Assembly: GCA_041687695.1 (NCBI GenBank)
Contig: JAWLBL010000011.1
Span: 1-64,000, forward strand
Direction: 5' to 3'
Length of the DNA stretch: 64,000 nt
Source: Myxococcota bacterium
Lineage (GTDB): Bacteria > Myxococcota_A > UBA9042 > PHBI01 > JAWLBL01
Of this stretch, positions 12,302-27,934 are shown piece by piece. The position numbers and the translations under genes were made by a program. Positions within the stretch are counted from its first letter, which is position 1, and the number at the start of each line of letters is the position of its first letter. The notes below the pieces were generated by a model. That model ran no database searches, was not told the origin of the DNA, and was given only the letters and a program-made list of their open reading frames with translations.

Positions 12302-15300
12302 CCGCGCTCGAACTCGACGTGGTCGACGCCGATGCCCTTGCCCGAGTTCTCGATGTCGTCCCAGCTCGAGAACGAGTAGCGCAGCCGGATGGTCTTGCCG
12401 GCGTAGGCGCTGAGATCCAGCGAGATCTGGCGCCAGCTGCTGTACTCGTTACAGGCGAGCTTGCTCTTGGTGAAGATCGGGCTGCCGGCGAGGCCGGTCT
12501 CGTCGTCCACCACGGTGATCTCGAACTTGTCGGCGAAGGGCGCGACGCCCGGCGTGCAGGACGGGTCCTTCTCGACGTCCAGGTACAGCCAGAACCGCAT
12601 GTTCCACGGCACGCCCGGGTCGAGCGTGATCGGCGCGCTGGTCGCGATGCCGCACGAGGCCTTGTTGGCCGAGCCGCCGTAGTCGGTGCCGTTGCCGAAG
12701 TACAGGATCTGCTGGCCCTGCTTGGTGCCCATGGCCGCCGCCTGGGCGCTCGTCGCGAACTTCCAGACCGACGCCGCGTCGGCCAGGCCGCCGCCGGGGG
12801 TGCAGGTGTCGAAGGTCCAAGTCGACGGGGCCGGCCCCTCGAAGGTCAGCGCCTTGTCGGTCTGGTAGGCCGGCGTGCAGCACTCGGGCGTGTCCTTCTT
12901 GGTCTGGACGCAGGTGAAGGTGTCGCTGCAGGAGGCGGTGTGGCACGCGTTGATGGGCGTGCAGTCCCCGCCGTACATGCACTTGATCTGCGACTCGGCC
13001 AGGCACGTCGTCTTGAAGGCGACCTCGTCGATGAACGGCCCGCCGAAGTCGTTGTCCGACGCGTCACCGCTGTCGAACTCGAACACCAGCTGGACCTCCT
13101 GGCCCTTGAAGGCCGTCAGGTCGGCGCGGGTCTTGACCCACTGGCCCTTGGTCGAGTTCTCGAGGAAGTGGCTCACCCACACCGGCTCGGCCTGGATGAC
13201 GCCGTCCACCATCACCTTCACGCGCAGCTCGTCGATGACGAACGGGCCGGTGATGAAGGGCTCCTCGGTGTCGTCCCAGAAGGTCGACAGCCGCAGCTTG
13301 AACTCGGCGAACGAGCGCCCCTTGCCGTAGGGCGGCACCAGGATGGGCGGGCTGACCGCCTGGCCCTTGACGGCCTTGGTGGGGTCGGGGTGCGCGAAGG
13401 TGCCGGTCGCCGGGTTCGAGAAGTTCAGGCTCTGCTTGCCCGCCGAGGCCTCGTCGTCGGTCACGTGCCAGGTCACCGGATCGGTGTCCAGGGCGACGGT
13501 GAACCCGTGGGCCATGGTCTCGAAGCTGGTCGACCACGCGCCCGGCCAGCCCGCCTCGGAGCAGCAGTTGTTGATGGTCGCCGGGTTGAACTCGTACTGG
13601 CACGTGCCCTGGATGCAGCTGTCCAACGTGCAGGTGTTGCTGTCGTTGCAGTCGGCCGCGACCGCGCAGCAGAGCGGGTCCTCCTTGATGTGCGTGCACT
13701 CGCCCAGCTCGCACACGTCCGTCGTGCACGCGTCGCCGTCGTCGCAGTCCGCCTGTCCGAGGCAGGGGTCGTCGCCGCAGACCGAGACCACCTGCAGCTC
13801 GTCGATGCGCACGCCGCCGCCGTCGTTGGCGACCTCGGAGCCGCTGTCGAACTCGAAGCCCAGCCGGACCTGCTTGCCCTGGAAGGCCGACAGGTCGACG
13901 CCGACCTGCGTCCAGCCGTCACCGGTCGTGTTGCCGATGGTCAGCGAGGTCCACACCTCGGTCGCCGTCTTGGCGTCCGTCGGCTTGACCCACACCCTCA
14001 GCACGTCGAACTGCTCGCCCGGCATCGGCTGGCCGGCGCCGTCGTACTCGGTCGACATCCACAGCCAGAACACGGCGCCCGTCTTGCGGAAGACCTCTTG
14101 CTCGACCGGGAAGACCGGCGTCCAGATGGTGGCCTCGGCGACCTGCGGCCCGTCGGGGCCGATCGCCTCGAAGGTCCCGGTGGCCGGGTCACCGAAGTAC
14201 AGCGACGAGGTGCCCTGGAACGCGAAGCCGTCGTCGACCTGCCAGGTGACGTTGTCGTCCTTGGCGTCCTCGATGGCCCAGTCCGTCAGCGTGCCGTCCT
14301 CGAAGCCCTCGACGTCGACCGCTGGCGGCTGGGTGATGGTCGGGAACGTGGTCGACGGGGCGCAGCAGTCGGCCTTGAGCGCCACGCTGCACTGCTGCGC
14401 GTTGCAGCTGTAGTCGAAGCAGCCGTCGTTGCCGCAGTCGGCCGTCTGAGCGCAGCTCTGGCAGCTCTCGCCCGGCGTGGCGTAGCTGTAGGCGCACACG
14501 CCGCCGCCACCGTTGCCGTACATCGTGCAGACGTCGCTCGTGCACCCGTTGCCGTCGGTCGGGCAGGGGGCGCCCGCGGCCTCGCAGAACGCCTCGCTGC
14601 AGGTCACGCGCACGCGGACGTTGTCGACGAAGACGCCCTCCCAGGCGTCGACCTGCGACGGGCCGAAGTTGCCGTCCTTGTCGGCGACGAAGCGGAAGCC
14701 GACGGTCACGGTCTTGCCGGCGTAGGCCGCCAGGTTCACCGCCTGGTGCACGAACTGGCCGTTGGTCGTGTTCGCGACGCCAAACGCCTGCGTGCTGCGC
14801 CAGACCTCCTTGGCGCCCGAGCCGTCGTTGACGCGGACCTGCAGGAAGTCCAGATCCATCTGCGGGATCGTTCCGTCGCCGGGGAAGGCGGGCTCGGCGC
14901 TCATGCGCACCCAGAAGCTGAGGAAGACACCCACGTTCGCGTCGAGCTGGATGGCGGGGATCTCGATGCGGGTGTCGAGGGCGGTGCCCTGGTTGGCGAG
15001 CGGCGTCGCCAGCTCGCAGTCGTTGGTGACGGGGCCGTTGTAGTAGGTGAGGCAGGTCGGGTGACCGAAGTGCACGCTGTAGGCGGGGCTGACGCGCGCC
15101 GTCTGGGTCACGTGCCACAGCGCCCCGGGCGCGACGGGCTGGTTCACCGTCATGCCCTGGAACGTCCCGTCGTCGAAGAGCTTCTGGGTGAAGGTCTTGT
15201 TGACCGAGCACACGGGCGGCATCGAGGCGCAGCCGCCCGCGGTGCACGTCTCGAGGCACAGGTCGGTCGTCGTCGGGTTGCCGTCGCTGCAGTCGGCGCT

Positions 15301-15888
15301 GGACTCGCAGCAGCCCTCGACGTCGCTGAACTCGCAGGTGTTGGTCTGCTGGTTGCACGTGCCCTTCTGGCAGCAGTGCGAGACGATGTCCTGGCAGTCG
15401 TCGTCCTCGAAGCAGCACCCGTCGACCGCCACCAGCGCGCACTGGCCGTCCACGCAGCCGGCCGACTGGCAGGGGTTGGTCACCGGGACCTTGCCCTCGC
15501 AGTCCGCCGCGACCGAGCAACAGCTCTCGATCGGCTCGGCCACGCACTCGCCGTCGTCGCAGACGGCCTGCTCGCACGCGCCGACGGTGAAGTCGCCGCA
15601 GTCGTCGTTGGTCTCACACGTCGGCGTGACGACCTCGGACGTGGTGTCCGCGTCGCCGCCGCTGCCGTCCGGCGGCAGCTCGGGGCCGACGTCGACGGTC
15701 CCGTCGTCCTCGACGTCGCCGAGGTCGTCGGGCGCGTCGTCGTCCTTGGTGTCCACCTCGGGAACGTCGAACTTTGGCAGCTCGGGCTCCTTCTGCGTCG
15801 GAGCATCGGGGCCGCAACCGGCCCCCACGAAGGCCAGGACGGCGAGTCCGGTACCGATCCACCTGGACGTGAACGAGATCTTGCTCAT
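12283..15888 (-). CDS. Large Cys-rich lipoprotein with four MAM-like beta-sandwich domains
   Basis: Signal ending VGAGC, D-rich linker, CDDGDACTTDVC-type repeats alternating with four homologous domains. Start placed at ATG 15888. Confidence 0.82.
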   Translation of the reverse strand: MSKISFTSRWIGTGLAVLAFVGAGCGPDAPTQKEPELPKFDVPEVDTKDDDAPDDLGDVEDDGTVDVGPELPPDGSGGDADTTSEVVTPTCETNDDCGDFTVGACEQAVCDDGECVAEPIESCCSVAADCEGKVPVTNPCQSAGCVDGQCALVAVDGCCFEDDDCQDIVSHCCQKGTCNQQTNTCEFSDVEGCCESSADCSDGNPTTTDLCLETCTAGGCASMPPVCSVNKTFTQKLFDDGTFQGMTVNQPVAPGALWHVTQTARVSPAYSVHFGHPTCLTYYNGPVTNDCELATPLANQGTALDTRIEIPAIQLDANVGVFLSFWVRMSAEPAFPGDGTIPQMDLDFLQVRVNDGSGAKEVWRSTQAFGVANTTNGQFVHQAVNLAAYAGKTVTVGFRFVADKDGNFGPSQVDAWEGVFVDNVRVRVTCSEAFCEAAGAPCPTDGNGCTSDVCTMYGNGGGGVCAYSYATPGESCQSCAQTADCGNDGCFDYSCNAQQCSVALKADCCAPSTTFPTITQPPAVDVEGFEDGTLTDWAIEDAKDDNVTWQVDDGFAFQGTSSLYFGDPATGTFEAIGPDGPQVAEATIWTPVFPVEQEVFRKTGAVFWLWMSTEYDGAGQPMPGEQFDVLRVWVKPTDAKTATEVWTSLTIGNTTGDGWTQVGVDLSAFQGKQVRLGFEFDSGSEVANDGGGVRIDELQVVSVCGDDPCLGQADCDDGDACTTDVCELGECTHIKEDPLCCAVAADCNDSNTCTLDSCIQGTCQYEFNPATINNCCSEAGWPGAWSTSFETMAHGFTVALDTDPVTWHVTDDEASAGKQSLNFSNPATGTFAHPDPTKAVKGQAVSPPILVPPYGKGRSFAEFKLRLSTFWDDTEEPFITGPFVIDELRVKVMVDGVIQAEPVWVSHFLENSTKGQWVKTRADLTAFKGQEVQLVFEFDSGDASDNDFGGPFIDEVAFKTTCLAESQIKCMYGGDCTPINACHTASCSDTFTCVQTKKDTPECCTPAYQTDKALTFEGPAPSTWTFDTCTPGGGLADAASVWKFATSAQAAAMGTKQGQQILYFGNGTDYGGSANKASCGIATSAPITLDPGVPWNMRFWLYLDVEKDPSCTPGVAPFADKFEITVVDDETGLAGSPIFTKSKLACNEYSSWRQISLDLSAYAGKTIRLRYSFSSWDDIENSGKGIGVDHVEFERGCPEPF

Positions 15889-15942
15889 GGCGACGCGCTC
15901 CCCTCGATGCGCAGACGACCCGGGGCGCCGTCCACGCGGCGC

Positions 15943-15991
15943 TTCCCCATCGTTTGGCGCCACCTTAGAATGAGTCCTTCCGAGGAATCAA
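15943..15991. promoter_or_regulatory. Possible overlapping divergent sigma70-like promoters
   Basis: Minus strand TTGATT-N18-TAAGGT (15991-15962); plus strand TTCCCC-N17-TAGAAT (15943-15971). Confidence 0.3.
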
Positions 15992-16057: not shown

Positions 16058-16357
16058 ATGCCGCCGCTCGACCCCGAAACCCCCGTCCGGGCCTTGGACG
16101 GCCTCGTCGTCCGCCGGGTCGGCGGGCAGGTCTTCGTCCTGCTCCCCGACAGCTCGATGCACGGTTTCAACAACGAGAGCGCGGTGGCCATCTGGGACCA
16201 CCTGGTCGCCGCCGGATCGGCCGGGCTGTCGGCCGGCGCCCTGTCGCAGCGCCTGTCGGCCGAGTTCAGCGTCGAGCCGGATCAGGCGCTCGAGACCGTG
16301 CTCCCCTTCCTCGAGCGGCTGATCGCGGAGGGCCTGTGCGCCCCCGCCGGGGCTTGA
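16058..16357 (+). CDS. PqqD family protein (RiPP recognition element)
   Basis: 99 aa with the PqqD/RRE pattern VVRRVGGQVFVL...NESAVAIWDHL...LSAEFSVE...VLPFLERLIAEGL; AGGAG RBS. Confidence 0.88.
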   Translation: MPPLDPETPVRALDGLVVRRVGGQVFVLLPDSSMHGFNNESAVAIWDHLVAAGSAGLSAGALSQRLSAEFSVEPDQALETVLPFLERLIAEGLCAPAGA

Positions 16358-16420
16358 CCGAGCGCCTGTAACCGGGTCACAACGCCGCGGATCGACGGGG
16401 CTTCGCGGCGGCGCGTCTCG

Positions 16421-16450
16421 TTGACTCCATTCCGGGCGCTTGCATAAGCT
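16421..16450 (+). promoter_or_regulatory. Sigma70-like promoter upstream of the giant Ig-like lipoprotein
   Basis: TTGACT-N18-TAAGCT in the intergenic region. Confidence 0.35.
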
Positions 16451-16590
16451 CCGCCCGATCGCGCGCGGTCACGTCCCGAGACGTCCCGCGCGGTCCTGAG
16501 AACACGCAGCCCGGACCCGGCCTCGGTCGCGTCCGGTCCCAATCGCGGCGCCTCCCTCCGCGCGTCGCCCGAGTCCTGGGGTCAGCTCTG

Positions 16591-19500
16591 ATGAATCGCC
16601 TCCTCCGCGTCCTCCTCGCCTGTGCCTTCCTGGCGGCCTGCGGCGACGATCCCGCCAAGACGGACAGCGACGCCGACATCGGTGACATCGACAAGGGCGA
16701 CGTCGACGAAGACGGCCGCGGGGACGTCGACGACGAGGTCGACGCCGGGCCCGACGGCGCGGGCGACACCGACGGCGACGTGACGCCGCCGGCCCCGACC
16801 ATCGACTTCTGGTTCGTGGGCGCCCAGGGCGCGCGCGGGCAGGGCGACGAGGCCGTCACGCTGCTGCCCGAGGACGAGCTGGCCGGGTTCGAGCAGACGG
16901 AGAACCTGCAGATCCAGGTGGCCGTGGCCACCACCGGCGTCAGCAACGGCCGGCAGGTCACCCTGGTGATCGACGGGGCCAACCAGGGCGCCGAGACGGT
17001 CACGGTCACGGGCGACGGGGCCGGCGTGGCGACCTTCGATCAGGTCTCGCTCAAGGCCTCGGACGCCGGCTACGAGGTCAAGGTGCAGGTGACGACGCTG
17101 GGCGGCCAGAGCGCGACCGCCACCAAGCAGGTCACCGTGCTGACCGAGGCCTGCGATCTGGCGCTGGCGCCGGCCGCCCAGGACGGCTGCATCAACGAGG
17201 ACGCGGACCCCGAGACGCCCGGACACCAGCTGCGCCTGACCGTGACGCACGCCAAGGGCACCTGCGACCGCGCCGAGCTGACGTTCACCAAGGGCGACGG
17301 GGAGCCCCAGACCCTGGGGCCGATCGACCTGGACGACGAGGGCGTGGCCGTGTTCGACGTCACGGTGGCGCCCGAGGGCGAGGTCTACGAGGGGAGCGTC
17401 ATCGTCGACGCGCGCGTCCTGCACCCCGAGCACGACAGCCTCGCGGGCAGCGTCCTGGGCGCGGTCTACGCCTTCGACAACGCCGCGCCGGTCGTCACCC
17501 TGACGACCCCCGATCCGGCGGTGGTCGCGGCGTTGACCCTGGCGGTCGATCAGGACGAGGACCCGACCAACGGCATCCAGTACCCGGTGCAGGGCACGGT
17601 CGAGGGCGCCGCCGAGGGCACCACGGTGATGATCGAGGTCGGCGGCGAGGCCGCGGGCGAGGCCGAGCTGGTCGACGGCGGCTTCGGGCTGCCCAGCGTC
17701 TCGTTCACCCAGAGCGGCCCGACCACGCTGGTGGCCCGCGCGACGGACGCCTGCGGCAACGAGGGGGTGGCCACGCTCGAGATCCCGGTCTACGTCGACA
17801 AGGTCGCCCTGGCCATCGCCGCTCCCGCCGAGGGCGCCGTGCTGCTGGCCAAGGACGACGGCGACCCGGCGACCGCGGACACGTTCGAGACCGCCGTGGT
17901 CGTCAAGGCCGACGACGCGACCCCGGGCGCCGTCATCGCCGTCGAGTGCCGCCCCGCCAGCGCCGGTGAGAACACCTGGTTCCCGGCGGCCCAGGCCACC
18001 GTGCCCGACCCCGCGCCCGAGGACGGGCTGTTCCCGGTGCCGGTCGCGCTGCCGCTGGACACGTTCTCCAACGACGTGGTGTGCCGCGCCAGCTATGGCG
18101 GTCCCAACCCCGTCACGTCGGCCCCGGTGGCCTTCGTCGTGGCCCTGCCCGCGCCCACGCTGGCGCTCACCGAGCCGGTCGAAGGCGCCATGCTCGCCTC
18201 GAAGGTGGTCCGCCTGGCGGGCACCGCCAAGGGGCTGGACGGGCAGCCGCTCATCGTGAGGCTCTTGCACCCGACGACCCAGCAGGTGGTCCTCGCCGTC
18301 TCGGCCGGGACGGTCACCGGCGGCGTCTTCGACTTCCAGCTCGACCTGGCCGCCCAGGGTGTCCCGGTCACCGACGGCACCTGGCTGCTGCAGGTCGACG
18401 CCAAGGACACCTGGGGCAACCTGGTCTCCGACGTCGGCCCGGCGCCGCAGGCCACCGTCACCATCGACACGGTCAAGCCGCTGCTCGTCGTGCTCCAGCC
18501 GGGCACGACGTTCCTCGACCCGATCGCCGACCCGACGCTGGCCGACGAGGATCCGGCGACGCCCGGCTACCAGACGACCATCGTCGTCCAGATGAACAAC
18601 GAGACCCAGCCCACGGGCGCGCAGGTCTGCCTGACCGTCAACGGCGAGGCGCTGGGCTGCGAGGCGCCGTCGGCCGAGGACTTCACCGCGACCTGGACGG
18701 GCGTGACGCTGGTCCCGGGCGCGGGCAACACGGTCACCGCGACGGGCGCCGACGCCTTCGGCAACGCGGCCAACCCGCTGACGCTCAAGCTGAACCTGGC
18801 GCTGCAGGCCCCGGTCGTGCAGATCCTGGCTCCCGAGGCCAAGCACGTCACGACCGCCGAGGCCGTCGCCGTCACGGTCAAGGTCAGCGACCCCGAGAAG
18901 GGCACGCCGCAGGTCGGCGCGGTGGTGACGCTGCACGTGGGCGGCGCCGACGCCGGGCTGACCGCCGCCGACAACGGCGACGGGACCTACACCTTCGCCG
19001 AGGTGCCGCTCGCCCCCGGCGTCAACACCCTCCAGGCGCTCGCGACCTGGTCCGGCGGTGACCCGGGCGCCAGCGCCGTGCGGCAGGTGACGCGCAAGAC
19101 CGACGCCCCGACCGTCGCCGTGACCGCCCCGGCCGACGGGACGGTCATCAACCTGCAGTCCTCCCTGTGCCTCGGGACCTCGCTCGACTGCACGGCCAAC
19201 GTGACCGTGGCGACCACGTCGGCCGAGGACGGCAGCGCGGTGACCCTGACGGTCGCCTGCGGCGCCGGCTCGACCGAGCTGACCGGCGTGGTGGCCGCCG
19301 AGGCCGCGACCTTCACGGGCGTGACGCTGACCCACGGCGGCGACTGCACCCTCACGGCGCAGGTGACGGACCTGGCCGGCCAGCAGGCGACCAGCGCGCC
19401 GGTGGTCGTCACCGTGGATCGGGCGGCGCCGACCATCACGGGCTTCACCCAGCCGGCCGGCGACTTCCTGCTGTACTACAACGACCTGTCGACCGACGAG

Positions 19501-22500
19501 GGCATGCAGGCCCCGCTCGTGCTGCAGCTGCAGGGCGTCGAGGCGGGCCAGGTGGTCTCGGTCGACGTCCGCAAGGCCGGCCAGGCGACCGGCACCGTGG
19601 TCACCCACACCGTGACGACCACCGTCTCGGGCGCGACCCTGTACACCGCCGACTTCGGCGTCGTGACCTACCCGGACGGCGCCGTGCTGCTCAAGGCCTC
19701 GGTCAGCGACGCGGCCGGCAACACGGCCACCAAGGACAAGCCCGTCTCGGTGCAGGCCAGCGCCCCGACGGTCGTCCTGCTGGCCCCGACCTGGCCGGGC
19801 GACGGCTGCGGCGCCTGCGCCTCGACCGCCCTGTGCAGCGACGGCGCATGCTGGCACCGCTGGAGCCAGAGCTACGCGTCGCAGACCGGCACGGTCACCA
19901 TCAGCACCTCGGGCTTCGTGACCGACAACAACACGAACAACCTGCGCATCTGCAGCGACCACCCGTCGCTCGCCGGCAGCAAGCCGGCCTGCGCCACCGG
20001 CGGCTACTTCGAGATCGCCCGCGCGACCGCGACCGGCTCCAGCCAGTTCTTCACGCCGACCTCGCTCCTGCCCGCCGGCCAGCAGACCCTCATCGCCGAG
20101 CTGCGCCCCGCGCCGGGCGAGCCCTGGCTGGCCAGCCTGACCGCGCAGGACACGCGCCAGCGGCTGCGTCGCGTCCTCGTCGACCTGACCCCGCCGCAGG
20201 TCACGTCGCTGTCGAGCCCCAGCGACACCGAGGCGCCGACCGGCGTGCTGAACGCGGCCGAGCAGGAGCCGTCGCAGCCCGCGCGCACCTACCGCGTCGC
20301 GGCCCAGGTCACCGAGGACGGACCGGTCGACTTCTACGTCCAGAACACCAAGGTCAAGACGGTCGAGGCCGTCGGCGGCGCGGTCGAGACCACGCTGACC
20401 CTGGTCAGCGGCGGCAACGAGATCTACGTCATCGCCCGAGACGCGGTCGGCAACGCCAGCGCCGCCCCGCCGACCGGGCCGGTGTACGCGCCGACCGTCG
20501 ACATCGTCGCGCCGGTCCTGGCCTTCGACAACCCGGTGCCTGGCACCGGCACGTATGGCCTCGGCGCGGTCCTCGACGTCGTGCTGGACGTCGGACTGCA
20601 GGCCTACGAGCAGACCGCCTCGGTGCAAGCCACCCTGTTCGACGGCGGCGTCGAGGTCGGCGCGCAGCCGGTGGTCGGCGGCGGCGCCACCTTCGCCGGC
20701 GCGCTGACCGAGGGCAGCCACACCTTCACGGCCAAGGTGACCGACCCGGCGGGCAACTCGGCGACGGTGGCCACCAGCCCGGCGACGGTGCTGGTCGACC
20801 TGACCCCGCCTGCCGCCGCCATCGCCTCGCCCGAGGCCGGCGTGCAGCTGACCGACGACTCGGACCCCGGCCAGTCGGGCTTCCAGGTGCAGGTGGACTT
20901 CAGCGCGGGCGAGGCGGCCGGGCCGGTCGACTGGAAGCTCGAGATCGCCGTGTGCCCCGACGCGACCTTCACGGGCTGCGGCGCGCTGTCGACCCGCGCG
21001 AGCGGCACGGCGACGGGCGTGACCGACCTCACGCGCCAGCTGACGCTGAACATCGTCGACACGGTCAGCCACCGACGCCTCGTGCTCACGACGACCGACC
21101 AGGCCGGAAACACGGCGACCGACGAGGTGACCTTCTCGGTCCTCATCGCCAACTGCTTCGTCAGCCTGACGAACCTGCCGGCGAGCGGCTGGCTCAACGC
21201 CTCCCACTGCCTCGAGGGCACCGCCTGCGACGCCGCGATCGTCGCGCAGCCCACCGGGGCCTGCGGGTCCAACACGACCATCGAGCTGTACGACGGCGCC
21301 ACGCTGCTGGGCAGCCAGACGGTCGTGGCGGGGACGGACGCGACCTTCGTGGTGCCGGTGGCCGACGGGCAGCAGCTGGCGCTGCAGGCCAAGGCGCTGC
21401 TCGGGACGGTCGAGGTGGGCGAGAGCTCGCTCGAGAGCGTCACGGTCGACCTGACGCCGCCGGAGGTGACGCTGGTCGCCAAGGACGTCGACGGGTTCAC
21501 GACCCCCGCGCCGCCGGCCTCCGAGGACGACATCGTCCTGTACAACGCCGGCCACGACGCCAACGCGGTCGTCCCGGGCTTCCAGGGCCGCGCGGTCGTC
21601 CGCATCACCGACGCCAACGCGGCCGGCGGTGGCCTGGTGCAGGTCGTGCGCACGACCTCGGGCGGGCCCGCGACGCTGACGCCGAACGTCCAGACCGACA
21701 CGCCCGCGGACGGCGTGCTCGAGCTGACCCTGCGGACCCTGACGCTGCTCGATCAGGAGACGAACCTGGTCGCCATCACGGTCGAGGACGCGGCCGGCAA
21801 CACGGTCACCGTCGGCTACGCCGCCGCCGTCGACGTGCAGCCGCCGGCCGCGGTCGCCCTGACCCTCGAGGGCTTCAACCCGCGCCTGCCCGGCGTGACC
21901 GTCAAGTGGACGGCCGTCGGCGACGACGGCACGACCGGGACGCCCGAGGCCTACGAGATCCGCTACAGCCGGTCCCCCATCACCGAGACCGACTTCGACA
22001 GCGCCTGCGCCGTCGGCGACATCGCCCACGCGGCGCCCATGCCCGACCCCGAGGCGGCCGGCGCGCAGCAGATCTACACGATCACCGGGCCGGACCCGCG
22101 GCCGCTGACCGACCCGTGCAAGTTCGCCTCCAGCCAGTCGCAGCCGACCTGGTACTTCGGCATCCGCGCCAGGGACGAGGTGGGGAACTGGTCGCCGGTG
22201 ACCGCCGCGTCGGTCCAGTCGACCAACCTGCTGACCTACGGGTTTTCGCGCATCGTGTTCAGCGACACCTTCCGCGACACGGTCGTCGGGGGCGTCGACA
22301 CGCGCCGCAAGTTCATCACCGCCTTCGGCGGGCTGGTGGGCGACGTCGACGGCGACGGCTTCGCGGACATGCTGGTCGGCAGCGGCCCGTCGGACGCCAT
22401 CTGCGTCATCTACGGCGCCGCCGACATGCCGGAAGAGGTCTTCATCGACTCGGCCTCGAACCTGACCAGCCTGACCGGCCCGCACCACGACTGCCTGGTC

Positions 22501-23745
22501 GGCGCCGCGAATGTGCTGCCTGGCGCCGTCCAGCTCGGCACGGCGGTCGGACCGGCGGGCGACGTCAACGGCGACGGCCTGGCCGACTTCTTCGCGACCG
22601 GCCGCGTCCCCGACGATCCCAACGCCGGGACGCTGGTCTACCAGGGCTTCGTCGCCATCTGGCTGGGCGTGCAGGACCAGGGCCCCGACCTGTCCGCCCC
22701 GCCCATCATCATCCGCGGCGCCAACCTCCCCACGGTCGGCGGCTACGTCTCGGCCTGCGGCGCCGGCAACTTCACGGGCGCGGTCAGCGCCGCCGGTCAC
22801 CCGATCGGCTCCTTCTCCGTGGGCGAGCCGGTGGCGGACCGCCTGACGGTCATCCCGGGCTCGGCCAGCTGGTCGCCCGACAGCCCGCGAGTCATCGATC
22901 TCGACGCGCTGGACGTCCCGGCCCTGACCTTCCAGGTCTCCGACGGCGCCTCGAACTTCGGCACCCGCTGCGACTGGGCCGGCGACCTCCTCGCGACCCC
23001 GGGCGGCGGCGTGGCGGCGACCGAGCTGCTGACCAACCACCTGGTCAACGTCAGCGGCAACGAGCACGAGCTGTTCGTCATCGCCGGGCGGCCCATCACG
23101 GGCACCTCGACGGTCAACGTCACGGCGCGTTCCGGCAGCGCGGCGACCGCCGAGGACGCCAACATCGTCAAGCTGCGCCAGGAGGCGGCCGGCTACCGCA
23201 ACAACTTCCCGTCGGCCTTCAACGGCAAGCACGACGTGACCGGCGACGGCACGCCCGACATCGTCGCGCTGCACTACTCGCGCGCGACGGCGCAGGGCGG
23301 CGACGGCCAGGCGCTGAGCGTGTTCGACGGCGAGCTGGTCCCGAACGGGCTGGGCAAGCGCCACCGCGTGGCCATCAGCGGCGCCAAGGACGGCAGCGTC
23401 TGGAAGGGCGCCAACGGCTTCATCGTCGAGACGGGCCTGGCCTCGAACCACAAGGCCGTGGCGATCTTCGACTGGGACGGCTGGACGTGGGAGGGGATGC
23501 CGCTCGCGGACCTGTTCGTGCCCGACAAGGCCGAGCCGGCCACGCTGCGCATCAACCACGCGACCACGCCCGGGGTCGTCGATCCGGGAATGTTCCCGGT
23601 GGTCGACGGCCTATTGACCAACCCCTGGGGCAGCGCCACCGGGGCCCTGACCTCGTGGGCGGACGGCGGCGCCGACCTCAGCGGCGACGGCGTGGCGGAC
23701 GCGGTGCTCGGCACGCACAATGGCGTGCTGGTGATCGTCCGCTAG
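16591..23745 (+). CDS. Giant surface lipoprotein: tandem bacterial Ig-like domains, an FN3-like domain and a C-terminal FG-GAP region
   Basis: Lipobox FLAAC; repeated (A/V)TDxAGN and VDxTPP Ig motifs; WTAVGDDG...YEIRYS...RARDEVGNWS; GDVDGDGFADMLVG and GDVNGDGLAD repeats. Confidence 0.88.
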   Translation: MNRLLRVLLACAFLAACGDDPAKTDSDADIGDIDKGDVDEDGRGDVDDEVDAGPDGAGDTDGDVTPPAPTIDFWFVGAQGARGQGDEAVTLLPEDELAGFEQTENLQIQVAVATTGVSNGRQVTLVIDGANQGAETVTVTGDGAGVATFDQVSLKASDAGYEVKVQVTTLGGQSATATKQVTVLTEACDLALAPAAQDGCINEDADPETPGHQLRLTVTHAKGTCDRAELTFTKGDGEPQTLGPIDLDDEGVAVFDVTVAPEGEVYEGSVIVDARVLHPEHDSLAGSVLGAVYAFDNAAPVVTLTTPDPAVVAALTLAVDQDEDPTNGIQYPVQGTVEGAAEGTTVMIEVGGEAAGEAELVDGGFGLPSVSFTQSGPTTLVARATDACGNEGVATLEIPVYVDKVALAIAAPAEGAVLLAKDDGDPATADTFETAVVVKADDATPGAVIAVECRPASAGENTWFPAAQATVPDPAPEDGLFPVPVALPLDTFSNDVVCRASYGGPNPVTSAPVAFVVALPAPTLALTEPVEGAMLASKVVRLAGTAKGLDGQPLIVRLLHPTTQQVVLAVSAGTVTGGVFDFQLDLAAQGVPVTDGTWLLQVDAKDTWGNLVSDVGPAPQATVTIDTVKPLLVVLQPGTTFLDPIADPTLADEDPATPGYQTTIVVQMNNETQPTGAQVCLTVNGEALGCEAPSAEDFTATWTGVTLVPGAGNTVTATGADAFGNAANPLTLKLNLALQAPVVQILAPEAKHVTTAEAVAVTVKVSDPEKGTPQVGAVVTLHVGGADAGLTAADNGDGTYTFAEVPLAPGVNTLQALATWSGGDPGASAVRQVTRKTDAPTVAVTAPADGTVINLQSSLCLGTSLDCTANVTVATTSAEDGSAVTLTVACGAGSTELTGVVAAEAATFTGVTLTHGGDCTLTAQVTDLAGQQATSAPVVVTVDRAAPTITGFTQPAGDFLLYYNDLSTDEGMQAPLVLQLQGVEAGQVVSVDVRKAGQATGTVVTHTVTTTVSGATLYTADFGVVTYPDGAVLLKASVSDAAGNTATKDKPVSVQASAPTVVLLAPTWPGDGCGACASTALCSDGACWHRWSQSYASQTGTVTISTSGFVTDNNTNNLRICSDHPSLAGSKPACATGGYFEIARATATGSSQFFTPTSLLPAGQQTLIAELRPAPGEPWLASLTAQDTRQRLRRVLVDLTPPQVTSLSSPSDTEAPTGVLNAAEQEPSQPARTYRVAAQVTEDGPVDFYVQNTKVKTVEAVGGAVETTLTLVSGGNEIYVIARDAVGNASAAPPTGPVYAPTVDIVAPVLAFDNPVPGTGTYGLGAVLDVVLDVGLQAYEQTASVQATLFDGGVEVGAQPVVGGGATFAGALTEGSHTFTAKVTDPAGNSATVATSPATVLVDLTPPAAAIASPEAGVQLTDDSDPGQSGFQVQVDFSAGEAAGPVDWKLEIAVCPDATFTGCGALSTRASGTATGVTDLTRQLTLNIVDTVSHRRLVLTTTDQAGNTATDEVTFSVLIANCFVSLTNLPASGWLNASHCLEGTACDAAIVAQPTGACGSNTTIELYDGATLLGSQTVVAGTDATFVVPVADGQQLALQAKALLGTVEVGESSLESVTVDLTPPEVTLVAKDVDGFTTPAPPASEDDIVLYNAGHDANAVVPGFQGRAVVRITDANAAGGGLVQVVRTTSGGPATLTPNVQTDTPADGVLELTLRTLTLLDQETNLVAITVEDAAGNTVTVGYAAAVDVQPPAAVALTLEGFNPRLPGVTVKWTAVGDDGTTGTPEAYEIRYSRSPITETDFDSACAVGDIAHAAPMPDPEAAGAQQIYTITGPDPRPLTDPCKFASSQSQPTWYFGIRARDEVGNWSPVTAASVQSTNLLTYGFSRIVFSDTFRDTVVGGVDTRRKFITAFGGLVGDVDGDGFADMLVGSGPSDAICVIYGAADMPEEVFIDSASNLTSLTGPHHDCLVGAANVLPGAVQLGTAVGPAGDVNGDGLADFFATGRVPDDPNAGTLVYQGFVAIWLGVQDQGPDLSAPPIIIRGANLPTVGGYVSACGAGNFTGAVSAAGHPIGSFSVGEPVADRLTVIPGSASWSPDSPRVIDLDALDVPALTFQVSDGASNFGTRCDWAGDLLATPGGGVAATELLTNHLVNVSGNEHELFVIAGRPITGTSTVNVTARSGSAATAEDANIVKLRQEAAGYRNNFPSAFNGKHDVTGDGTPDIVALHYSRATAQGGDGQALSVFDGELVPNGLGKRHRVAISGAKDGSVWKGANGFIVETGLASNHKAVAIFDWDGWTWEGMPLADLFVPDKAEPATLRINHATTPGVVDPGMFPVVDGLLTNPWGSATGALTSWADGGADLSGDGVADAVLGTHNGVLVIVR

Positions 23746-23819
23746 GTTTGCGGTAACAGATACAGCCGTCGGAGCCGGCGCGTCGCGCGCCGGCCGGTCT
23801 CAGTGGAAGGCGTACGGAC

Positions 23820-24005
23820 GTGAACGAAACGAAACTGCGTGACGACAGCGGCGCCGAGGCTCCGGCCGCGGGGCGGGACGGGCGCAAGCCCTGGGAGCCG
23901 CCGCGTCTGGACAGCGGCCGCGTCTTCGAGCGGGTGCTCCTGTCGAGCGGCACGACGTGCACCCCCTCCGAGCTGGAGATGTGCGCGCCGCCCTATTGCG
24001 AATGA
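23820..24005 (+). CDS. Putative RiPP precursor peptide (61 aa)
   Basis: Leader motif KPWEPPRL resembles the RRE-binding (Y/W)xxPxL motif. Core SGTTCTPSELEMCAPPYCE has 3 Cys. GGAAGG RBS; the stop overlaps the next ATG (ATGA). Confidence 0.75.
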   Translation: MNETKLRDDSGAEAPAAGRDGRKPWEPPRLDSGRVFERVLLSSGTTCTPSELEMCAPPYCE

Positions 24006-24895
24006 GCGCCGCCACCGCGGAGCCGCCATCGGCCCCTGAGGGGGTCGAGGCGCTCCGCGTCGGCCCGCTGCGCGTCACCTCGACCCTCGACGGCCCGGGC
24101 GCCCGCCGCGCGTTCGCCGCCTTGCGTGAGGCCTACGTCGACGTCCCGCGGGCCACGGTGGCCGAGGCCACGCTGGTCCTCGAGCGCTACGATGGCCCGG
24201 GCGAGGTGGGCCCCGCGACGCTCGCGCTCGACGGCGACGCCAGCGGCCGATACCACGGCCGCTGCGGCCGCTGGGACGCGCGGCTGGACCTGTCGGACCC
24301 ACGGCGCGCGCGGGTCGTCGGGCGGCTCCCGCGCGACATGGCGGGCGAGGACCGGGTCGCGGCCATGGCCACGACCCTGACGCGCCTGGCGGCCGCCGCG
24401 GCGCTGGTGCCGCTGGGGGGCTTCCTGGTGCACGGGGCGGCGCTGGTCCGGCCCGGCGGGGGCGCGGTGCTGTTCGCGGGCCCGAGCGGGGCCGGCAAGA
24501 CCACGATGACGCGCCGGCTGCCCGGCTGGACGGCGCTGGCCGACGACACGGTCCTCATCGAGTGGGACGCGGGGCAGGGCGCCTTCTACGCCGGCGGGAC
24601 GCCGTTCCGCGGCCACGAGGGCCTGCCGCGGACGGGCCTGCGGGCGCCGCTCGAGCGGGTCGCGGTGCTGGCCCCCCACGCCGCGCAGGGGCGGTGGAGC
24701 GCGCTGGACGAGGCGAGCGCGTTCGCGTCGCTGATGGCGCGGATCATCTGGTTCGTCCGCTCGGGGCCGCTGGTCGACGACCTGACCGAGCTGGTCCAGC
24801 GCTGCGCTCAGACCGTGCCGTTCGGACGGCTCGAGACCTCGCTCGAGCACGACGTCGCCGCGCTGCTGGCGTCGGCCGGAGAGGGGGCGCGATGA
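24002..24895 (+). CDS. HPr kinase-related P-loop protein (ScmC-like)
   Basis: HGAAL...LFAGPSGAGKTT...LADD...GTPF; ATGA overlaps at both ends. Confidence 0.8.
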   Translation: MSAATAEPPSAPEGVEALRVGPLRVTSTLDGPGARRAFAALREAYVDVPRATVAEATLVLERYDGPGEVGPATLALDGDASGRYHGRCGRWDARLDLSDPRRARVVGRLPRDMAGEDRVAAMATTLTRLAAAAALVPLGGFLVHGAALVRPGGGAVLFAGPSGAGKTTMTRRLPGWTALADDTVLIEWDAGQGAFYAGGTPFRGHEGLPRTGLRAPLERVAVLAPHAAQGRWSALDEASAFASLMARIIWFVRSGPLVDDLTELVQRCAQTVPFGRLETSLEHDVAALLASAGEGAR

Positions 24896-26037
24896 CCGGC
24901 ATGCTCGAGCGCGTCCGCGCCGCCTACCTGGCCGCCGGGCTCATCTCGCACGTCCACATCGATCTTCTGTACCAGTGCGATCTCGACTGCTTGCACTGCT
25001 ACCTGGACGACAAGGTCCAGCGCCTGCACGACACCGCCTTCTGGAAGGACGTGCTGGACCAGCTGGCCGAGCTGCAGGTCCTCGACGTCACGCTGAGCGG
25101 CGGCGAGCTGCTGCTCCGCAAGGACGCGCTGGACCTCATCGCCCACGCCCGGTCGCGCGGTCTGCTCGTGCACCTCAAGACCCACGCCGGCCGCATCGAC
25201 GACGCCGCCGCCGATCGGCTGGCCGCGCTGGGCGTGTCTACCATCAGCGTCAGCTACTACGCGACCGACCCGGCCGTCCACGACGCCATCACGCGCCGCC
25301 CCGGCAGCCACGACCGCACCTGGGCGGCCATCCGCCGCCTCGCCGAGCGCGGCGTGAACGTCAAGGTCAGCTGCCCCGTCATGGCCGCCAACCGCCACGC
25401 CTACCCGGACGTGGTCCGGGCCTGCGGCGACATTGGCGTCCCGGTCGCGCTCACCGGGCACATCTTCGCGACCCACGGCGGCGAGGCCTTCCCCGCCGAC
25501 GCCGCCCTGACCGCGCAGGAGCAGAGCGATCTGGAGGCCTTCATGGCCACCCTCGAGGCCGGCTGCGGCAAGACCCCGCCCGGCGCGCGCTGGGAGGACG
25601 CCTCGTCCTGTGGCGCGGGGCGCGTGACCCTGTACGTCAGCCCCCAGGCCGAGGTGCGACCCTGCGTCATCTGGCCGCAGCCGCTGGGCCGCCTGACCGA
25701 CACGCGCCTGGCCGACATCGTCGCGCGCTCTCCCGCCCTGGCGCGCATCCGCAGCCAGCGGCGCCGCGACCGCGACGTCTGCGCCGGCTGCGCGCTGCGC
25801 GAGCAGTGCGACTACTGCCCCGGGCAGGCCTTCACGGACTCGGGCGACCCGACCCGACCGGTCCGCTCGATCTGCGAGTCGACCTGGGCCCGGGCCAAGG
25901 CGCGCGCCCGGCTGGCGGGCGACCCCGAGCCGCCGCGTCCGCCGGGGCTGGACGGCCCCGAGCCGCCGCGGCGCTTCCGCGTCCTGTCGGCCGCCGAGGC
26001 CCGCGCCGCCGAGCGCGAGGCCGGCCAGGCGCCGTGA
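24892..26037 (+). CDS. Radical SAM/SPASM domain maturase
   Basis: CDLDCLHC (CxxxCxxC) and SGGE; SPASM CGAG...VRPC...CAGCALREQCDYCPG...C. Start ATG 24892. Confidence 0.92.
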   Translation: MTGMLERVRAAYLAAGLISHVHIDLLYQCDLDCLHCYLDDKVQRLHDTAFWKDVLDQLAELQVLDVTLSGGELLLRKDALDLIAHARSRGLLVHLKTHAGRIDDAAADRLAALGVSTISVSYYATDPAVHDAITRRPGSHDRTWAAIRRLAERGVNVKVSCPVMAANRHAYPDVVRACGDIGVPVALTGHIFATHGGEAFPADAALTAQEQSDLEAFMATLEAGCGKTPPGARWEDASSCGAGRVTLYVSPQAEVRPCVIWPQPLGRLTDTRLADIVARSPALARIRSQRRRDRDVCAGCALREQCDYCPGQAFTDSGDPTRPVRSICESTWARAKARARLAGDPEPPRPPGLDGPEPPRRFRVLSAAEARAAEREAGQAP

Positions 26038-26468
26038 TCCCGCTGAACGCCGCCGGCCTGGACGCCATGCGGGCGGACATGGCCCGCGAGCACCTGGCGG
26101 CCGGCCGCCCCCTGCGCGCGCGCGCCCACGGCCTGAGCATGTGGCCCTGCCTGCGCCCCGGCGCCTTGGTGACCGTCGAGCCGCTGGGCGCGCGGCCGCC
26201 TCGCCGCGGCGACGTCGTCCTGGCCGACTTCGGCGGGCGCCTGGTGTTGCATCGCGTCCTGCGCGTGGCCGGGGACCGCCTGTGGCTCAAGGGCGACGCG
26301 CGGCCGTCCGGCGACCCGCCCGTCGCCGCCGGGGCCGTGCTGGGCCGCCTCGCGCCGCGCGCCCTCGACCCGGTCCTGGCGCGTCTGTCGCCGCTGCTAG
26401 GGCGTCCGCTGGCGCTCGGCGCCGCGCTGACGCAGAGGTTTTTTGACCGCCTCCCGACCCGCTCCTAG
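26034..26468 (+). CDS. S24/S26 family peptidase-like protein
   Basis: GLSMWPCL, RGDVVL, LVLHRV and LKGDA motifs; the GTG start overlaps the rSAM stop (GTGA). Confidence 0.8.
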   Translation: MIPLNAAGLDAMRADMAREHLAAGRPLRARAHGLSMWPCLRPGALVTVEPLGARPPRRGDVVLADFGGRLVLHRVLRVAGDRLWLKGDARPSGDPPVAAGAVLGRLAPRALDPVLARLSPLLGRPLALGAALTQRFFDRLPTRS

Positions 26469-26515
26469 CATCGCCCCGCGATACAGGCCCCACGAGCGGG
26501 GGCGGGAGGCTGGGA

Positions 26516-27934
26516 ATGCGGTGGGCTCGAACGATGGCCCTGGCGGCGTGTGTGGCCGCTGGGTGCAGCGCCCGGGGCGATGAGGTCGAGCGCGAGCTCG
26601 AAGCGCTCCGGCGCGAGATCGCCGAGCTGCAGAAGCGTCCGGCCGTCGCGGCGGCGCCTCGGGTGCCCGCGCCGGCCGGCAACCCGGCGGGTCCCCCGCG
26701 CATCCCGGCCGCCCCGGACCCCAGCGCGCCGCCGCCGCTGCCGGTCGTCAAGCTGCAGCGCATCAAGGCCGACCCCTTCAAGGAGGGGCGCGAGCCGACC
26801 ATCCGCATCGGCAAGAAGGGGCGCGAGGCGCCTCCGGTCGCCAAGGAGCCGAGCGGGCCGCTCGAGTTCGACCGGATGGACGAGCACGGCAACCTGGTCG
26901 ACCGAGAAGGGCGCGTCGTCTACAAGGCCGGCACCTTCAGCCCGCCCATCGACACCCCGACCCCCGAGGCGCCCCCGGATCGCGTCTGGGAGGTGGCCGA
27001 CGACCCGCACGCCTCGCCGGCCGAGCGGGTCGACCGCGCCATGGGCGTGCCGCGCGTCGACGGCGTCTCGTCCGCGCCCGGCGCACCGCAGCCGGGCATC
27101 CGCCCGCTGCCCAAGCCGCGCCTGCGCGAGGTGGTGATCCGCGAGGGCGAGCTGCCCGACGACCTGCCGCTCAACCGCGACGACGCCATCGTCGTGCAGC
27201 CCGAGGCGCGCGATCCGGGCCCGCCGCCCGGCGCCGTGGGCGATCCGGACGAGCCGATCATCCGCGTCCGCAAGGACGACTACGCGCCGCCGCGGCCGGC
27301 GCGTCCGCCGACGCCGACCGATCTGGCGCCGGTGCCGGCGCCGGAGCCGCCCGCGGCGCTGCCCGAGCCCGAGCCGGAGCCCGCCCCGACCCCGGCCGCG
27401 CCGGCGCCCATGCCGCGCCTGACCCCGCCCCCCATGCCCGTCGTCGCGCCGCCGGCGCCCGTGGCGCCGCGTCCCATCGCCAAGCCGCGCTCGGCCCCCG
27501 GGCCGCAGCGGGTCATCCGGCAGGTGGCCTTCAAGGGCGCCAAGGACAAGCGCGCGAAGAAGCTCTACGAGCAGGGCTACGGCGCCTTCCAGAAGGGCGA
27601 CCACCTGGCCGCGCGCAAGAAGTTCGAGCTGCTGCTCGAGCACTACTACGAGCACGATCTGGCCGACAACGCCCTGTACTGGCTGGGCGAGACCGCCTAC
27701 GGCCGCGGCGAGTGGCTGCAGGCCCTCGCCTGGTTCCAGGATCTCATCCTGCGCTACCCCGGCGGCAACAAGCTGCCGGACGCCATGCTCAAGTCGGCGC
27801 TCTGTTACGCGCGCCTCGGCGATGCGTCGTATGCGGTGAAGATCCTCACCGACGTCGAAGCCCTCTTCCCCTCGCAGCCGGTCGCGGAGGTCGCCCGTGA
27901 GCGGCGCCTCCAGCTCAGCGACGGAGGACCCTGA
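26516..27934 (+). CDS. ybgF: YbgF/CpoB-like TPR lipoprotein with a long Pro-rich linker
   Basis: Lipobox AAGC, short coiled coil, and C-terminal LADNALYWLGE...YPGGNKLPDAMLK TPRs. Confidence 0.72.
   Translation: MRWARTMALAACVAAGCSARGDEVERELEALRREIAELQKRPAVAAAPRVPAPAGNPAGPPRIPAAPDPSAPPPLPVVKLQRIKADPFKEGREPTIRIGKKGREAPPVAKEPSGPLEFDRMDEHGNLVDREGRVVYKAGTFSPPIDTPTPEAPPDRVWEVADDPHASPAERVDRAMGVPRVDGVSSAPGAPQPGIRPLPKPRLREVVIREGELPDDLPLNRDDAIVVQPEARDPGPPPGAVGDPDEPIIRVRKDDYAPPRPARPPTPTDLAPVPAPEPPAALPEPEPEPAPTPAAPAPMPRLTPPPMPVVAPPAPVAPRPIAKPRSAPGPQRVIRQVAFKGAKDKRAKKLYEQGYGAFQKGDHLAARKKFELLLEHYYEHDLADNALYWLGETAYGRGEWLQALAWFQDLILRYPGGNKLPDAMLKSALCYARLGDASYAVKILTDVEALFPSQPVAEVARERRLQLSDGGP

Follow-up and report, generated by a model that had tools for sequence, protein, structure and literature searches.

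A conserved Myxococcota operon, probably for peptide maturation, with a predicted kinase, a radical SAM enzyme and a giant integrin-like lipoprotein

What do six co-oriented genes on a Myxococcota contig make, and why is one of them a giant? The genes fill positions 16058-26468 of a 64,000-nucleotide stretch of DNA (JAWLBL010000011.1, positions 1 to 64,000; hereafter the window) and had been read, in the original prediction, as a candidate system for a peptide made on the ribosome and modified after translation (RiPP) arranged around a giant adhesin. We find that the unit is a real, conserved and uncharacterised RiPP operon, and that a small Cys-containing peptide is very probably phosphorylated, modified by radical chemistry and trimmed by the products of its six genes. 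That the unit matures a peptide is highly likely. With less assurance, we favour its being a pathway related to that of the linear polyphosphorylated peptides (LPPs) of Bacillota, extended by a radical S-adenosylmethionine (rSAM) step, expressed together with a giant surface lipoprotein and working in its service. What stands out most is that the precursor gene persistently adjoins the gene of this integrin-like lipoprotein, lying immediately after it in many uncultured myxobacteria.

An ORF check of the window placed all six genes on the + strand. They encode a 99-aa stand-alone RiPP recognition element (RRE) of the PqqD family (16058..16357), the 2384-aa giant lipoprotein (16591..23745), a 61-aa precursor (23820..24005), a 297-aa HprK/PEPCK-fold kinase-like protein (24002..24895), a 381-aa rSAM/SPASM maturase of a family without a name (24892..26037) and a 144-aa S24/S26 signal-peptidase-I-like protease (26034..26468). 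Coordinates and sequence bore out the co-orientation and the three 4-nt stop/start overlaps that had first drawn attention to the locus (ATGA at 24002, ATGA at 24892 and GTGA at 26034), and third-position GC was 0.87-0.98 in the frames of the six genes. Pfam models above cut-off were PqqD for the RRE, Big_13 for the giant, and Radical_SAM and SPASM for the rSAM; none of the NCBIfam families listed reached its cut-off for any of the six genes (for the rSAM, the best 25 of 56 matches). By BLAST each gene was single-copy in its own genome, apart from distant paralogues of the rSAM. The second PqqD of that genome is part of a separate pqq operon on contig C12, a complete-looking pqqABCDE (G000:C12:132059-135299). 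Named homologues of the unit came from metagenome-assembled genomes of Myxococcota/Deltaproteobacteria.

Conservation was followed in 40 regions of the host's class, each reaching up to 20 kb round an rSAM match and picked from 78 matching genomes to span families; with the window there were 41. The gene order of the unit was conserved in these 40 loci of related Myxococcota genomes. Kinase, rSAM and peptidase profiles matched in 40/40 loci and the giant in 39/40, the fortieth having only its last 176 residues on the contig. The RRE lay immediately upstream of the giant in 30/40 loci; 6 others ended at a contig or region edge, and the remaining 4 had an RRE orthologue elsewhere in the genome. 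No neighbour beyond the unit was invariant. The original prediction expected a short Cys-peptide ORF next to rSAM homologues, and the neighbourhood survey found one in 40/40 loci, as a precursor homologue between giant and kinase (the fortieth in G036, locus L086). The precursor is a real gene, and its leader and core are under purifying selection: in 7 close pairs, synonymous changes per site exceeded non-synonymous ones in both parts, narrowly so for one leader. The giant, which the original prediction had the cluster surround, is a conserved member of the unit and not something incidentally enclosed by it. A second rSAM was present in 2/40 loci; some loci of family f9 (L059:2757-3878, L059:13723-14892; L067) have it upstream of the RRE together with a PF14907 nucleotidyltransferase after the peptidase, a layout that comes nearer to SynChlorMet as well as to LPP.

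The closest tested system is the LPP pathway, lppA-K-B-S-D-N (Popov 2026, Nat Commun, PMC13381572, cited throughout from parts of the article and its supplement), and not SynChlorMet or HPr-rel-A. There the RRE binds YxxP, and LppK polyphosphorylates Ser3 of LppA, 18 residues past the leader Tyr, and rejects Thr; LppS, for which S29, H68 and D93 are required, depends on the RRE to cut behind Phe-Glu-Thr and does so poorly when phosphorylation is missing (PMC13381572). The window precursor has a leader with W25-x-x-P28-x-L30, S32, F36-E37 and L41, a conserved S43, and a variable core with C47, C55 and C60. Its aromatic-to-Ser43 spacing is that from Tyr-16 to Ser3 in LppA (18 residues). Set against the LPP consensus YxxPxVLxHQxIxFETxxS, the aromatic, the Pro and the final Ser are in register, HQ is missing, and FE lies two residues earlier and occurs in about half of 50 precursors. 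These 50 distinct class-type sequences (one spurious row was dropped) were selected with a pattern that demanded the [Y/W/F]xxP aromatic and Pro and also S/T/A near +18, by which the counts of Leu at +16 (41/50) and of Ser at +18 (38/50, with Thr in 4/50) are partly favoured; the unfiltered list had the same +16/+18 pattern. Unselected were S/T at aromatic+7 in 49/50, one to four core Cys in 50/50, a core length of 8-22 residues with an abundance of Gly, Pro, Cys, Asp and Glu, and the lack of conservation at the last residue (Ser in 5/50). No Pfam or NCBIfam model matched the precursor, which met only unnamed clusters in the ESM Atlas and was the sole copy found in its own genome by a motif and leader-profile search.

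Distant cassettes differ at the same positions. Among the matches listed, +18 was Cys in 22/43 precursors and the C-terminal residue was Ser in 28/43, the 43 including 4 class-type rows and one spurious row. Ser at +18 with a rare terminal Ser in the class, and the opposite in the distant cassettes, leaves one conserved Ser acceptor in either form, and suggests that the phospho-acceptor moved from a C-terminal to an internal Ser. Two distant cassettes hold tandem precursor copies, as typical RiPP clusters do (three in L116:10959-11900, two in L143:11104-11649).

The RRE scored 34.6 bits against a PqqD cut-off of 23.4, and its family profile matched TbiB1, TfuB1, 9x90 and 9x8z (PbaB1 and LppB complexes). 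It is lasso-B1/LppB-like and a predicted binder of the W-x-x-P-x-L leader motif. In LPP an Asp of the RRE hydrogen-bonds the leader Tyr (PMC13381572), and the conserved Asp of the family studied here would be the same residue, because it keeps the same spacing to a conserved Phe. All 35 of 35 Tyr-leader loci retain it; in 2/6 loci with a Trp or Phe leader, the window among them, Thr stands in its place. Restriction of the loss to non-Tyr leaders (2/2) agrees with the prediction of LPP's Tyr/Trp rule. We dropped the idea that the giant itself is a substrate of the RRE, because no leader-like motif was found inside the giant.

His144, the P-loop G160-x-x-G163-x-G165-K166-T and D181-D182 of the kinase-like protein were invariant in 32 sequences. 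Its profile matched PEP carboxykinases, and the nearest ESM Atlas clusters, by language-model features, carried PF27840 ScmC (score 0.97). This ScmC-like and LppK-like protein is a predicted Ser kinase of the precursor. The peptidase had a borderline match to Pfam Peptidase_S24 (23.1 against a cut-off of 23.3), and its best solved matches were SEC11C/SEC11A (E 4e-9). Among 31 sequences S35 and H73 were invariant and D88 and D94 nearly so, and no N-terminal hydrophobic anchor was seen. We predict a soluble leader peptidase of the archaeal/ER signal-peptidase-I type, resembling LppS.

In the rSAM enzyme, C29-x3-C33-x2-C36 was invariant (41 sequences); the SPASM cysteines C240, C258, C297, C300, C306 and C309 occurred in at least 40 of the 41, and C328 in 30. 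Structure prediction gave a confident fold. Most such enzymes have Thr-Asn-Gly where this family has a conserved Lys-Thr-His-Gly (K96 in 34/41, H98 in 31/41), which one might speculate binds phosphate. Tyr37, directly after CxxxCxxC, and Ser121 appear to match Tyr113 and Ser199 of the sactisynthase StsB, by motif position only and as the two of six positions that could be mapped. The nearest solved relatives were SkfB and PqqE by sequence and SkfB, SuiB and PqqE by fold, with CteB also among them; for rSAM/SPASM enzymes such nearness does not foretell the reaction (PMC10288494, in part). No match for the rSAM was found on plasmids.

How much of this is LPP? A stand-alone lasso-B1-like RRE with a [Y/W]xxPx[VIL] leader, an HprK-like kinase, a soluble archaeal-type signal peptidase with Ser/His/Asp, and a conserved leader before a variable core with a Ser 18 residues past the leader aromatic are common to both. 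The unit studied here differs in adding an rSAM/SPASM enzyme and an invariant core Cys, in being fixed to a giant lipoprotein, and in being single-copy and largely vertical, whereas LPP is patchy. It also lacks a linked MsbA-like exporter, and an NTP transferase is adjacent in only 2/41 class loci. Assignment to LPP proper was rejected on the missing transporter and NTP transferase and the extra rSAM; with rSAM and core Cys, it probably makes something other than a plain linear peptide. The main text of PMC13381572 contains none of 'radical SAM', 'rSAM' and 'Myxococc'. The supplement has 4 Myxococcota peptidase rows in small clusters, which that text does not analyse, gives a related peptidase and a kinase-RRE fusion for Chondromyces apiculatus DSM 436, and has Radical_SAM, FG-GAP and Peptidase_C25 only as columns of a domain matrix. 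We did not find the cassette described in literature searches that missed most subscription journals. Because one published pathway offers characterised counterparts for three of the four maturation proteins, the unit is not categorically new. The complete maturation pathway of the original prediction holds as far as a real Cys precursor, an RRE and intact catalytic motifs in kinase, rSAM and peptidase are concerned, while crosslinking becomes one of several compatible chemistries.

Kinship with SynChlorMet or HPr-rel-A, as originally suggested, was not upheld. These cassettes also combine PqqD-like, HprK-like and rSAM/SPASM proteins, and the kinase does resemble the broad Pfam ScmC. The specific models, however, stayed far below cut-off (bits/cut-off: ScmC TIGR04249 33.2/125, ScmD TIGR04248 13/100, ScmE TIGR04250 70/400, ScmF TIGR04251 63.7/400; for HPr-rel-A, TIGR04352 and TIGR04353, HprK_rel_A 18.2/200 and its PqqD chaperone 14.7/35). 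The unit has one rSAM in place of the ScmE/ScmF pair, and a signal-peptidase-like gene and a giant lipoprotein besides. PQQ biosynthesis was rejected too (PqqE model 82.5/381; the genome's own pqq operon is the separate locus on C12), as was GeoRSP/SbtM (GeoRSP rSAM model 86.6/400; the window core has no Gly-Cys). Sactipeptide and ranthipeptide maturases and SbtM/GeoRSP share an RRE-associated rSAM/SPASM enzyme and a Cys-containing peptide with our unit, but SkfB, StsB, AlbA and GeoRSP models were below cut-off for its rSAM, Cys-acceptor spacing is not conserved, and a kinase and a signal-peptidase-like protease accompany the rSAM. A PapB-like ranthipeptide rule was rejected, as the cores had no fixed Cys-to-Asp/Glu spacing. 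Lasso peptides were set aside with no macrolactam cyclase C or B2 peptidase among the six genes or the recurrent neighbours. Paeninodin/Bsf-type phosphorylated lasso clusters, as summarised in PMC13381572, have the RRE type, leader motif and HprK-like Ser kinase in common with the unit, which differs in having no macrolactam cyclase or B2 cysteine peptidase and in precursors mostly without a C-terminal Ser. In logic only, the unit resembles the qhp system of quinohemoprotein amine dehydrogenase, where a leader-cleaved cytoplasmic peptide is encoded beside large exported proteins and the rSAM-matured QhpC becomes a subunit of an exported protein (PMC7876137, in part). The qhp system has an ABC exporter (QhpF), a subtilisin-like protease (QhpE), hemes and a Trp-derived quinone; no exporter, hemes or quinone were seen in our unit, and the likeness implies no homology of peptide, protease or partner.

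Because Ser43 stands in the register of LppA Ser3, we take the unit to be LPP machinery to which an rSAM working on Cys has been added. Genes, motifs, conservation, co-occurrence and fold are what the analysis shows, and from them we predict the following course of chemistry, binding and export. The RRE would very probably bind the W25-x-x-P28-x-L30 leader, to judge from solved homologous complexes. The HprK-like kinase would then phosphorylate Ser43, perhaps repeatedly, by analogy with LppK and from the register; we put considerable trust in phosphorylation of some Ser and rather less in this particular residue. The rSAM/SPASM enzyme would modify core Cys, with sulfur-to-carbon thioether rings as the modestly favoured outcome and oxidation of the Cys beta-carbon as the main alternative. 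Very likely, the RRE also brings the leader to the soluble peptidase with its Ser-His-Asp residues, and cleavage would release a short, acidic, Cys-modified phosphopeptide. Export from the cytoplasm would depend on a transporter whose gene lies elsewhere, and a PF14907 enzyme, likewise unlinked, might first add a nucleotide or sugar. Once outside, the product probably takes part at the cell surface in whatever process the lipoprotein serves, most simply as ligand or small subunit of the propeller head; direct binding is a more doubtful proposition.

What is the lipoprotein? Read by eye from the N-termini, the giant has a lipoprotein-type signal peptide with Cys17, as do homologues whose start is visible. 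An Ig-like stalk is followed by an FN3-like domain and a C-terminal integrin-alpha-like FG-GAP beta-propeller; Pfam gave Big_13 and weak FG-GAP matches, and homologues exceeded the FG-GAP cut-offs. An AF2 model of residues 1750-2384 (635 residues; pLDDT 90) showed a beta-sandwich and then a propeller, and the best Foldseek matches of this tip were integrin alpha headpieces (E 1e-9, TM 0.40/0.53). Full-length relatives are unnamed hypothetical proteins, and 'adhesin' is a label that we draw from the predicted fold. A complex prediction of the 635-residue tip with the precursor core region scored 0.02, which is evidence neither way.

Giant and maturation enzymes tend to be present or absent together. 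In 107 class genomes, counted by hand with an rSAM orthologue defined by a profile score of at least 250 bits (lower scores were taken as generic rSAM), the FG-GAP tip profile matched in 90 and the rSAM orthologue in 88. Both occurred in 84, or 85 with G003, where a contig-cut rSAM lies beside the giant; in one of the 84, G067, the rSAM is of another type. Of the 17 genomes without a tip, 13 also had no rSAM orthologue (two of them only 67% complete), in 2 the contig breaks off shortly upstream of the rSAM, and another 2 had a differently ordered cassette with an rSAM outside the clade. Five genomes had a tip and no rSAM orthologue: in three a contig ends at the precursor or kinase, the assembly of G103 is 67% complete, and in G065 the giant stands by itself. 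In a quick rSAM tree without bootstrap (90/91 rows used, L152 having no full-length match), sequences from this gene order fell on one side of a branch with 95% SH-aLRT, together with 4 giant-less rows. They grouped by host family, which suggests vertical inheritance of the unit. In G067, locus L169 (G067:C150:1-3648) has an other-order cassette converging on the 3' end of a giant-type gene, and the leader profile found no precursor there.

Beyond the class we drew on an alignment scan of many phyla (at least 600 rows, 80 loci kept) and a phylum-level search that matched 154/401 genomes, from which 20 hand-picked loci were added. Twelve of the 20 encode an FG-GAP lipoprotein of 839-2295 aa, shorter or equal, and in 12/12 of these the precursor ends 166-208 nt past the lipoprotein stop. 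This junction spans two gene orders, RRE-lipoprotein-precursor-enzymes (6/12) and kinase-(RRE)-rSAM-lipoprotein-precursor (6/12); the profiles missed the peptidase in 4 of the 12 loci and, in one locus each, the kinase and the RRE. Among the matches listed, loci of Nitrospirota, Desulfobacterota, Kiritimatiellota and Verrucomicrobiota have these enzymes beside unrelated secreted proteins with Peptidase_C25 at their end. Nineteen adjacent giants from the same matches were scanned, giving 10 with Peptidase_C25, 7 with FG-GAP and 2 with other propellers. Likewise among the matches listed, 49 loci have two or more accessory genes and lack a full-length giant of the class type. A long adjacent ORF or a tip match is present in 32 of them, among which are 4 class-type loci that are truncated and 2 with an unscanned ORF of 794 aa. 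The LPP supplement contains one Acidobacteria peptidase of this type as a 3031-aa fusion (PMC13381572), and rows 165-167 and 197 of its supplement 2 show Acidobacteria peptidases fused to the 3031-aa protein or to an apparent polysaccharide-export protein.

Is the peptide coupled to the lipoprotein, or are they neighbours only? We consider coupling probable from genomic context, because giant and rSAM co-occur in 85/107 genomes and are both missing in 13, and because the precursor follows the lipoprotein in two gene orders (12/12). A number of observations weigh against the overall reading. G065 (95% complete, 420 contigs) has the giant without precursor, kinase, RRE or rSAM orthologue, G161 has a cassette and no tip match, and paralogous giants of family f6 (L151, L152 and L153, in G058, G060 and G064) stand alone, with no second precursor or cassette found beside them. 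Seventeen of the 49 distant cassettes, among the matches listed, have no adjacent long ORF, and several of them are in loci of polysaccharide type. Since related genomes do not count as independent observations, the joint losses come to a handful of events. No exporter is linked to the unit, unlike LPP and qhp. On the side of the chemistry, the selection pattern inflates the +18 S/T count, 4/50 precursors have Thr at +18, which LppK rejects, and 1/50 has no S/T at +17 to +19; core Cys spacing is variable, and 5/50 cores have no Asp or Glu.

Cassettes without the giant and giants without a cassette also speak for a rival view, which we regard as a serious though minority possibility: the peptide pathway exists in its own right, and peptide and lipoprotein are no more than co-regulated in a surface or biofilm programme and never touch. 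LPPs lie in capsule loci, L183, L185 and L191 add cassettes without the giant to that of G161, unrelated proteins take the place of the giant in other phyla, and in family f7 a promoter-like site stands between giant and precursor in 3 loci. Yet the lipoprotein-precursor junction is the one kept across both gene orders, the precursor starts within about 10-20 nt of the giant stop in several loci, and the two are jointly absent in 13 genomes. A further reading, with the variable core as a self-identity signal and the propeller as its cognate receptor in kin recognition or contact signalling, seems improbable. The cores diverge widely between families over a conserved leader, the unit is single-copy and inherited along host families, and the integrin-like head is a peptide-binding fold in animals; within genera, however, cores are nearly identical and under purifying selection, unlike diversifying pherotypes, and no sensor or signalling gene is linked.

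The chemistry has rivals of its own. Leu41-x-Ser43 may be a -3/-1 cleavage motif, comparable to Phe-Glu-Thr of LppA, in which case the mature peptide would begin at Gly44 and the kinase would act on Ser32 or mark the leader for cleavage. LppS cuts after hydrophobic-x-Thr (PMC13381572), and in nearly all 50 precursors +16 is Leu and +18 a small residue (S/T/G/A/C), the latter position tolerating the Thr that LppK would refuse. Phe-Glu at +11/+12 is lost in family f18, the residue after this motif is often Arg or Lys, and the best-conserved hydroxyl is the one at +7. Ser43 as acceptor is favoured instead by its register with Ser3 of LppA and by the way in which a C-terminal Ser is lost in complement to it, and +7 lies in the segment that, in LppB-LppA, pairs with the sheet of the RRE (PMC13381572); we find the cleavage motif plausible but unlikely. 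Slightly less likely still is that the rSAM oxidises Cys, or the +18 Ser/Cys, at the beta-carbon like anSME and SbtM, yielding an aldehyde or thio-oxazole that might bind metal or attach covalently. That would suit the +18 residue, Cys in distant cassettes and Ser/Thr in the class, the single Cys of 12/50 cores and the free acceptor spacing; Gly-Cys, the SbtM substrate motif (PMC9204691, in part), occurs in 27/50 homologue cores. Its absence from the window core, the low GeoRSP score and the apparent StsB-like Tyr37 and Ser121 argue against it. We give very little credence to a small redox cofactor like PQQ or mycofactocin: the rSAM overall resembles MftC and PqqE and the distribution is single-copy and housekeeping-like, but the core has no fixed residue pair, no dehydrogenase is linked, the true pqq operon is separate, and leader and peptidase are of lasso/LPP type.

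Where does the unit begin and end as a transcript? A putative sigma-70-type promoter at 16421..16450 (+; TTGACT-18-TAAGCT), recognised by consensus match only and below the threshold of a stricter promoter scan, would serve giant, precursor, kinase, rSAM and peptidase. A similar element directly follows the RRE in 9/31 RRE-bearing loci, the window included, and the precursor starts within ~20 nt of the giant stop in several loci, for which reasons these genes probably share one transcript. At the 3' boundary, a putative promoter of CpoB-like and LysM genes (26443..26471, +; TTGACC-17-TAGCAT) has its -35 element over the last codons of the peptidase gene, and a similar element occurs at the end of that gene in about half of the 41 loci. 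The genes downstream (window 26516-29016, +) encode a CpoB/YbgF-like TPR lipoprotein and a LysM protein; a CpoB-like gene was found there in 24/41 loci and a LysM gene in 21/41. The statement that no ABC exporter belongs to the locus proved correct: no transporter family recurs among the neighbours in 41 class loci, and the window's own genome gave no C39-peptidase match. That genome has 3 PF14907 genes above cut-off elsewhere, one within a polysaccharide-type locus; next to the unit this nucleotidyltransferase occurs in 2/41 class loci.

Upstream of the RRE lie two divergent lipoproteins with choice-of-anchor J / InhA-like MAM domains (window 12283-15963 and 10274-12301, both -), with homologues in 12/41 loci, all of one bacterial order. 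Further off, a 3217-aa ORF (window 53650-63303, -) has an eCIS core domain near its N-terminus as its sole Pfam match. The genome also carries a dispersed REP- or MITE-like repeat of ~100-180 bp (for example C19:173942-174150 of G000), with none in the window; BLAST gave 200 matches of at least 90 bp on 44 contigs, 39 near contig ends and at times in tandem.

The biological roles of LPPs and paeninodins are stated as unknown (PMC13381572). The variant described here ties LPP-like machinery to one specific conserved surface protein, suggesting an undescribed role at the cell surface, and brings in an rSAM of an unnamed family that is single-copy in about four fifths of the class. It makes two questions testable: what rSAM chemistry takes place alongside Ser phosphorylation, and whether RiPPs are parts of adhesin-like surface complexes. 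Possibly, though we hold this only tentatively, Myxococcota have a widespread and vertically inherited surface apparatus in which a ribosomal peptide, phosphorylated and rSAM-modified, serves a giant integrin-like lipoprotein as dedicated ligand, as subunit or as covalent anchor, the same module being paired with unrelated giants (C25/PorU-like) in other phyla. If so, this would be the first biological role for LPP-type phosphopeptides, and RiPP chemistry would be a general accessory of giant surface proteins and not secondary metabolism.

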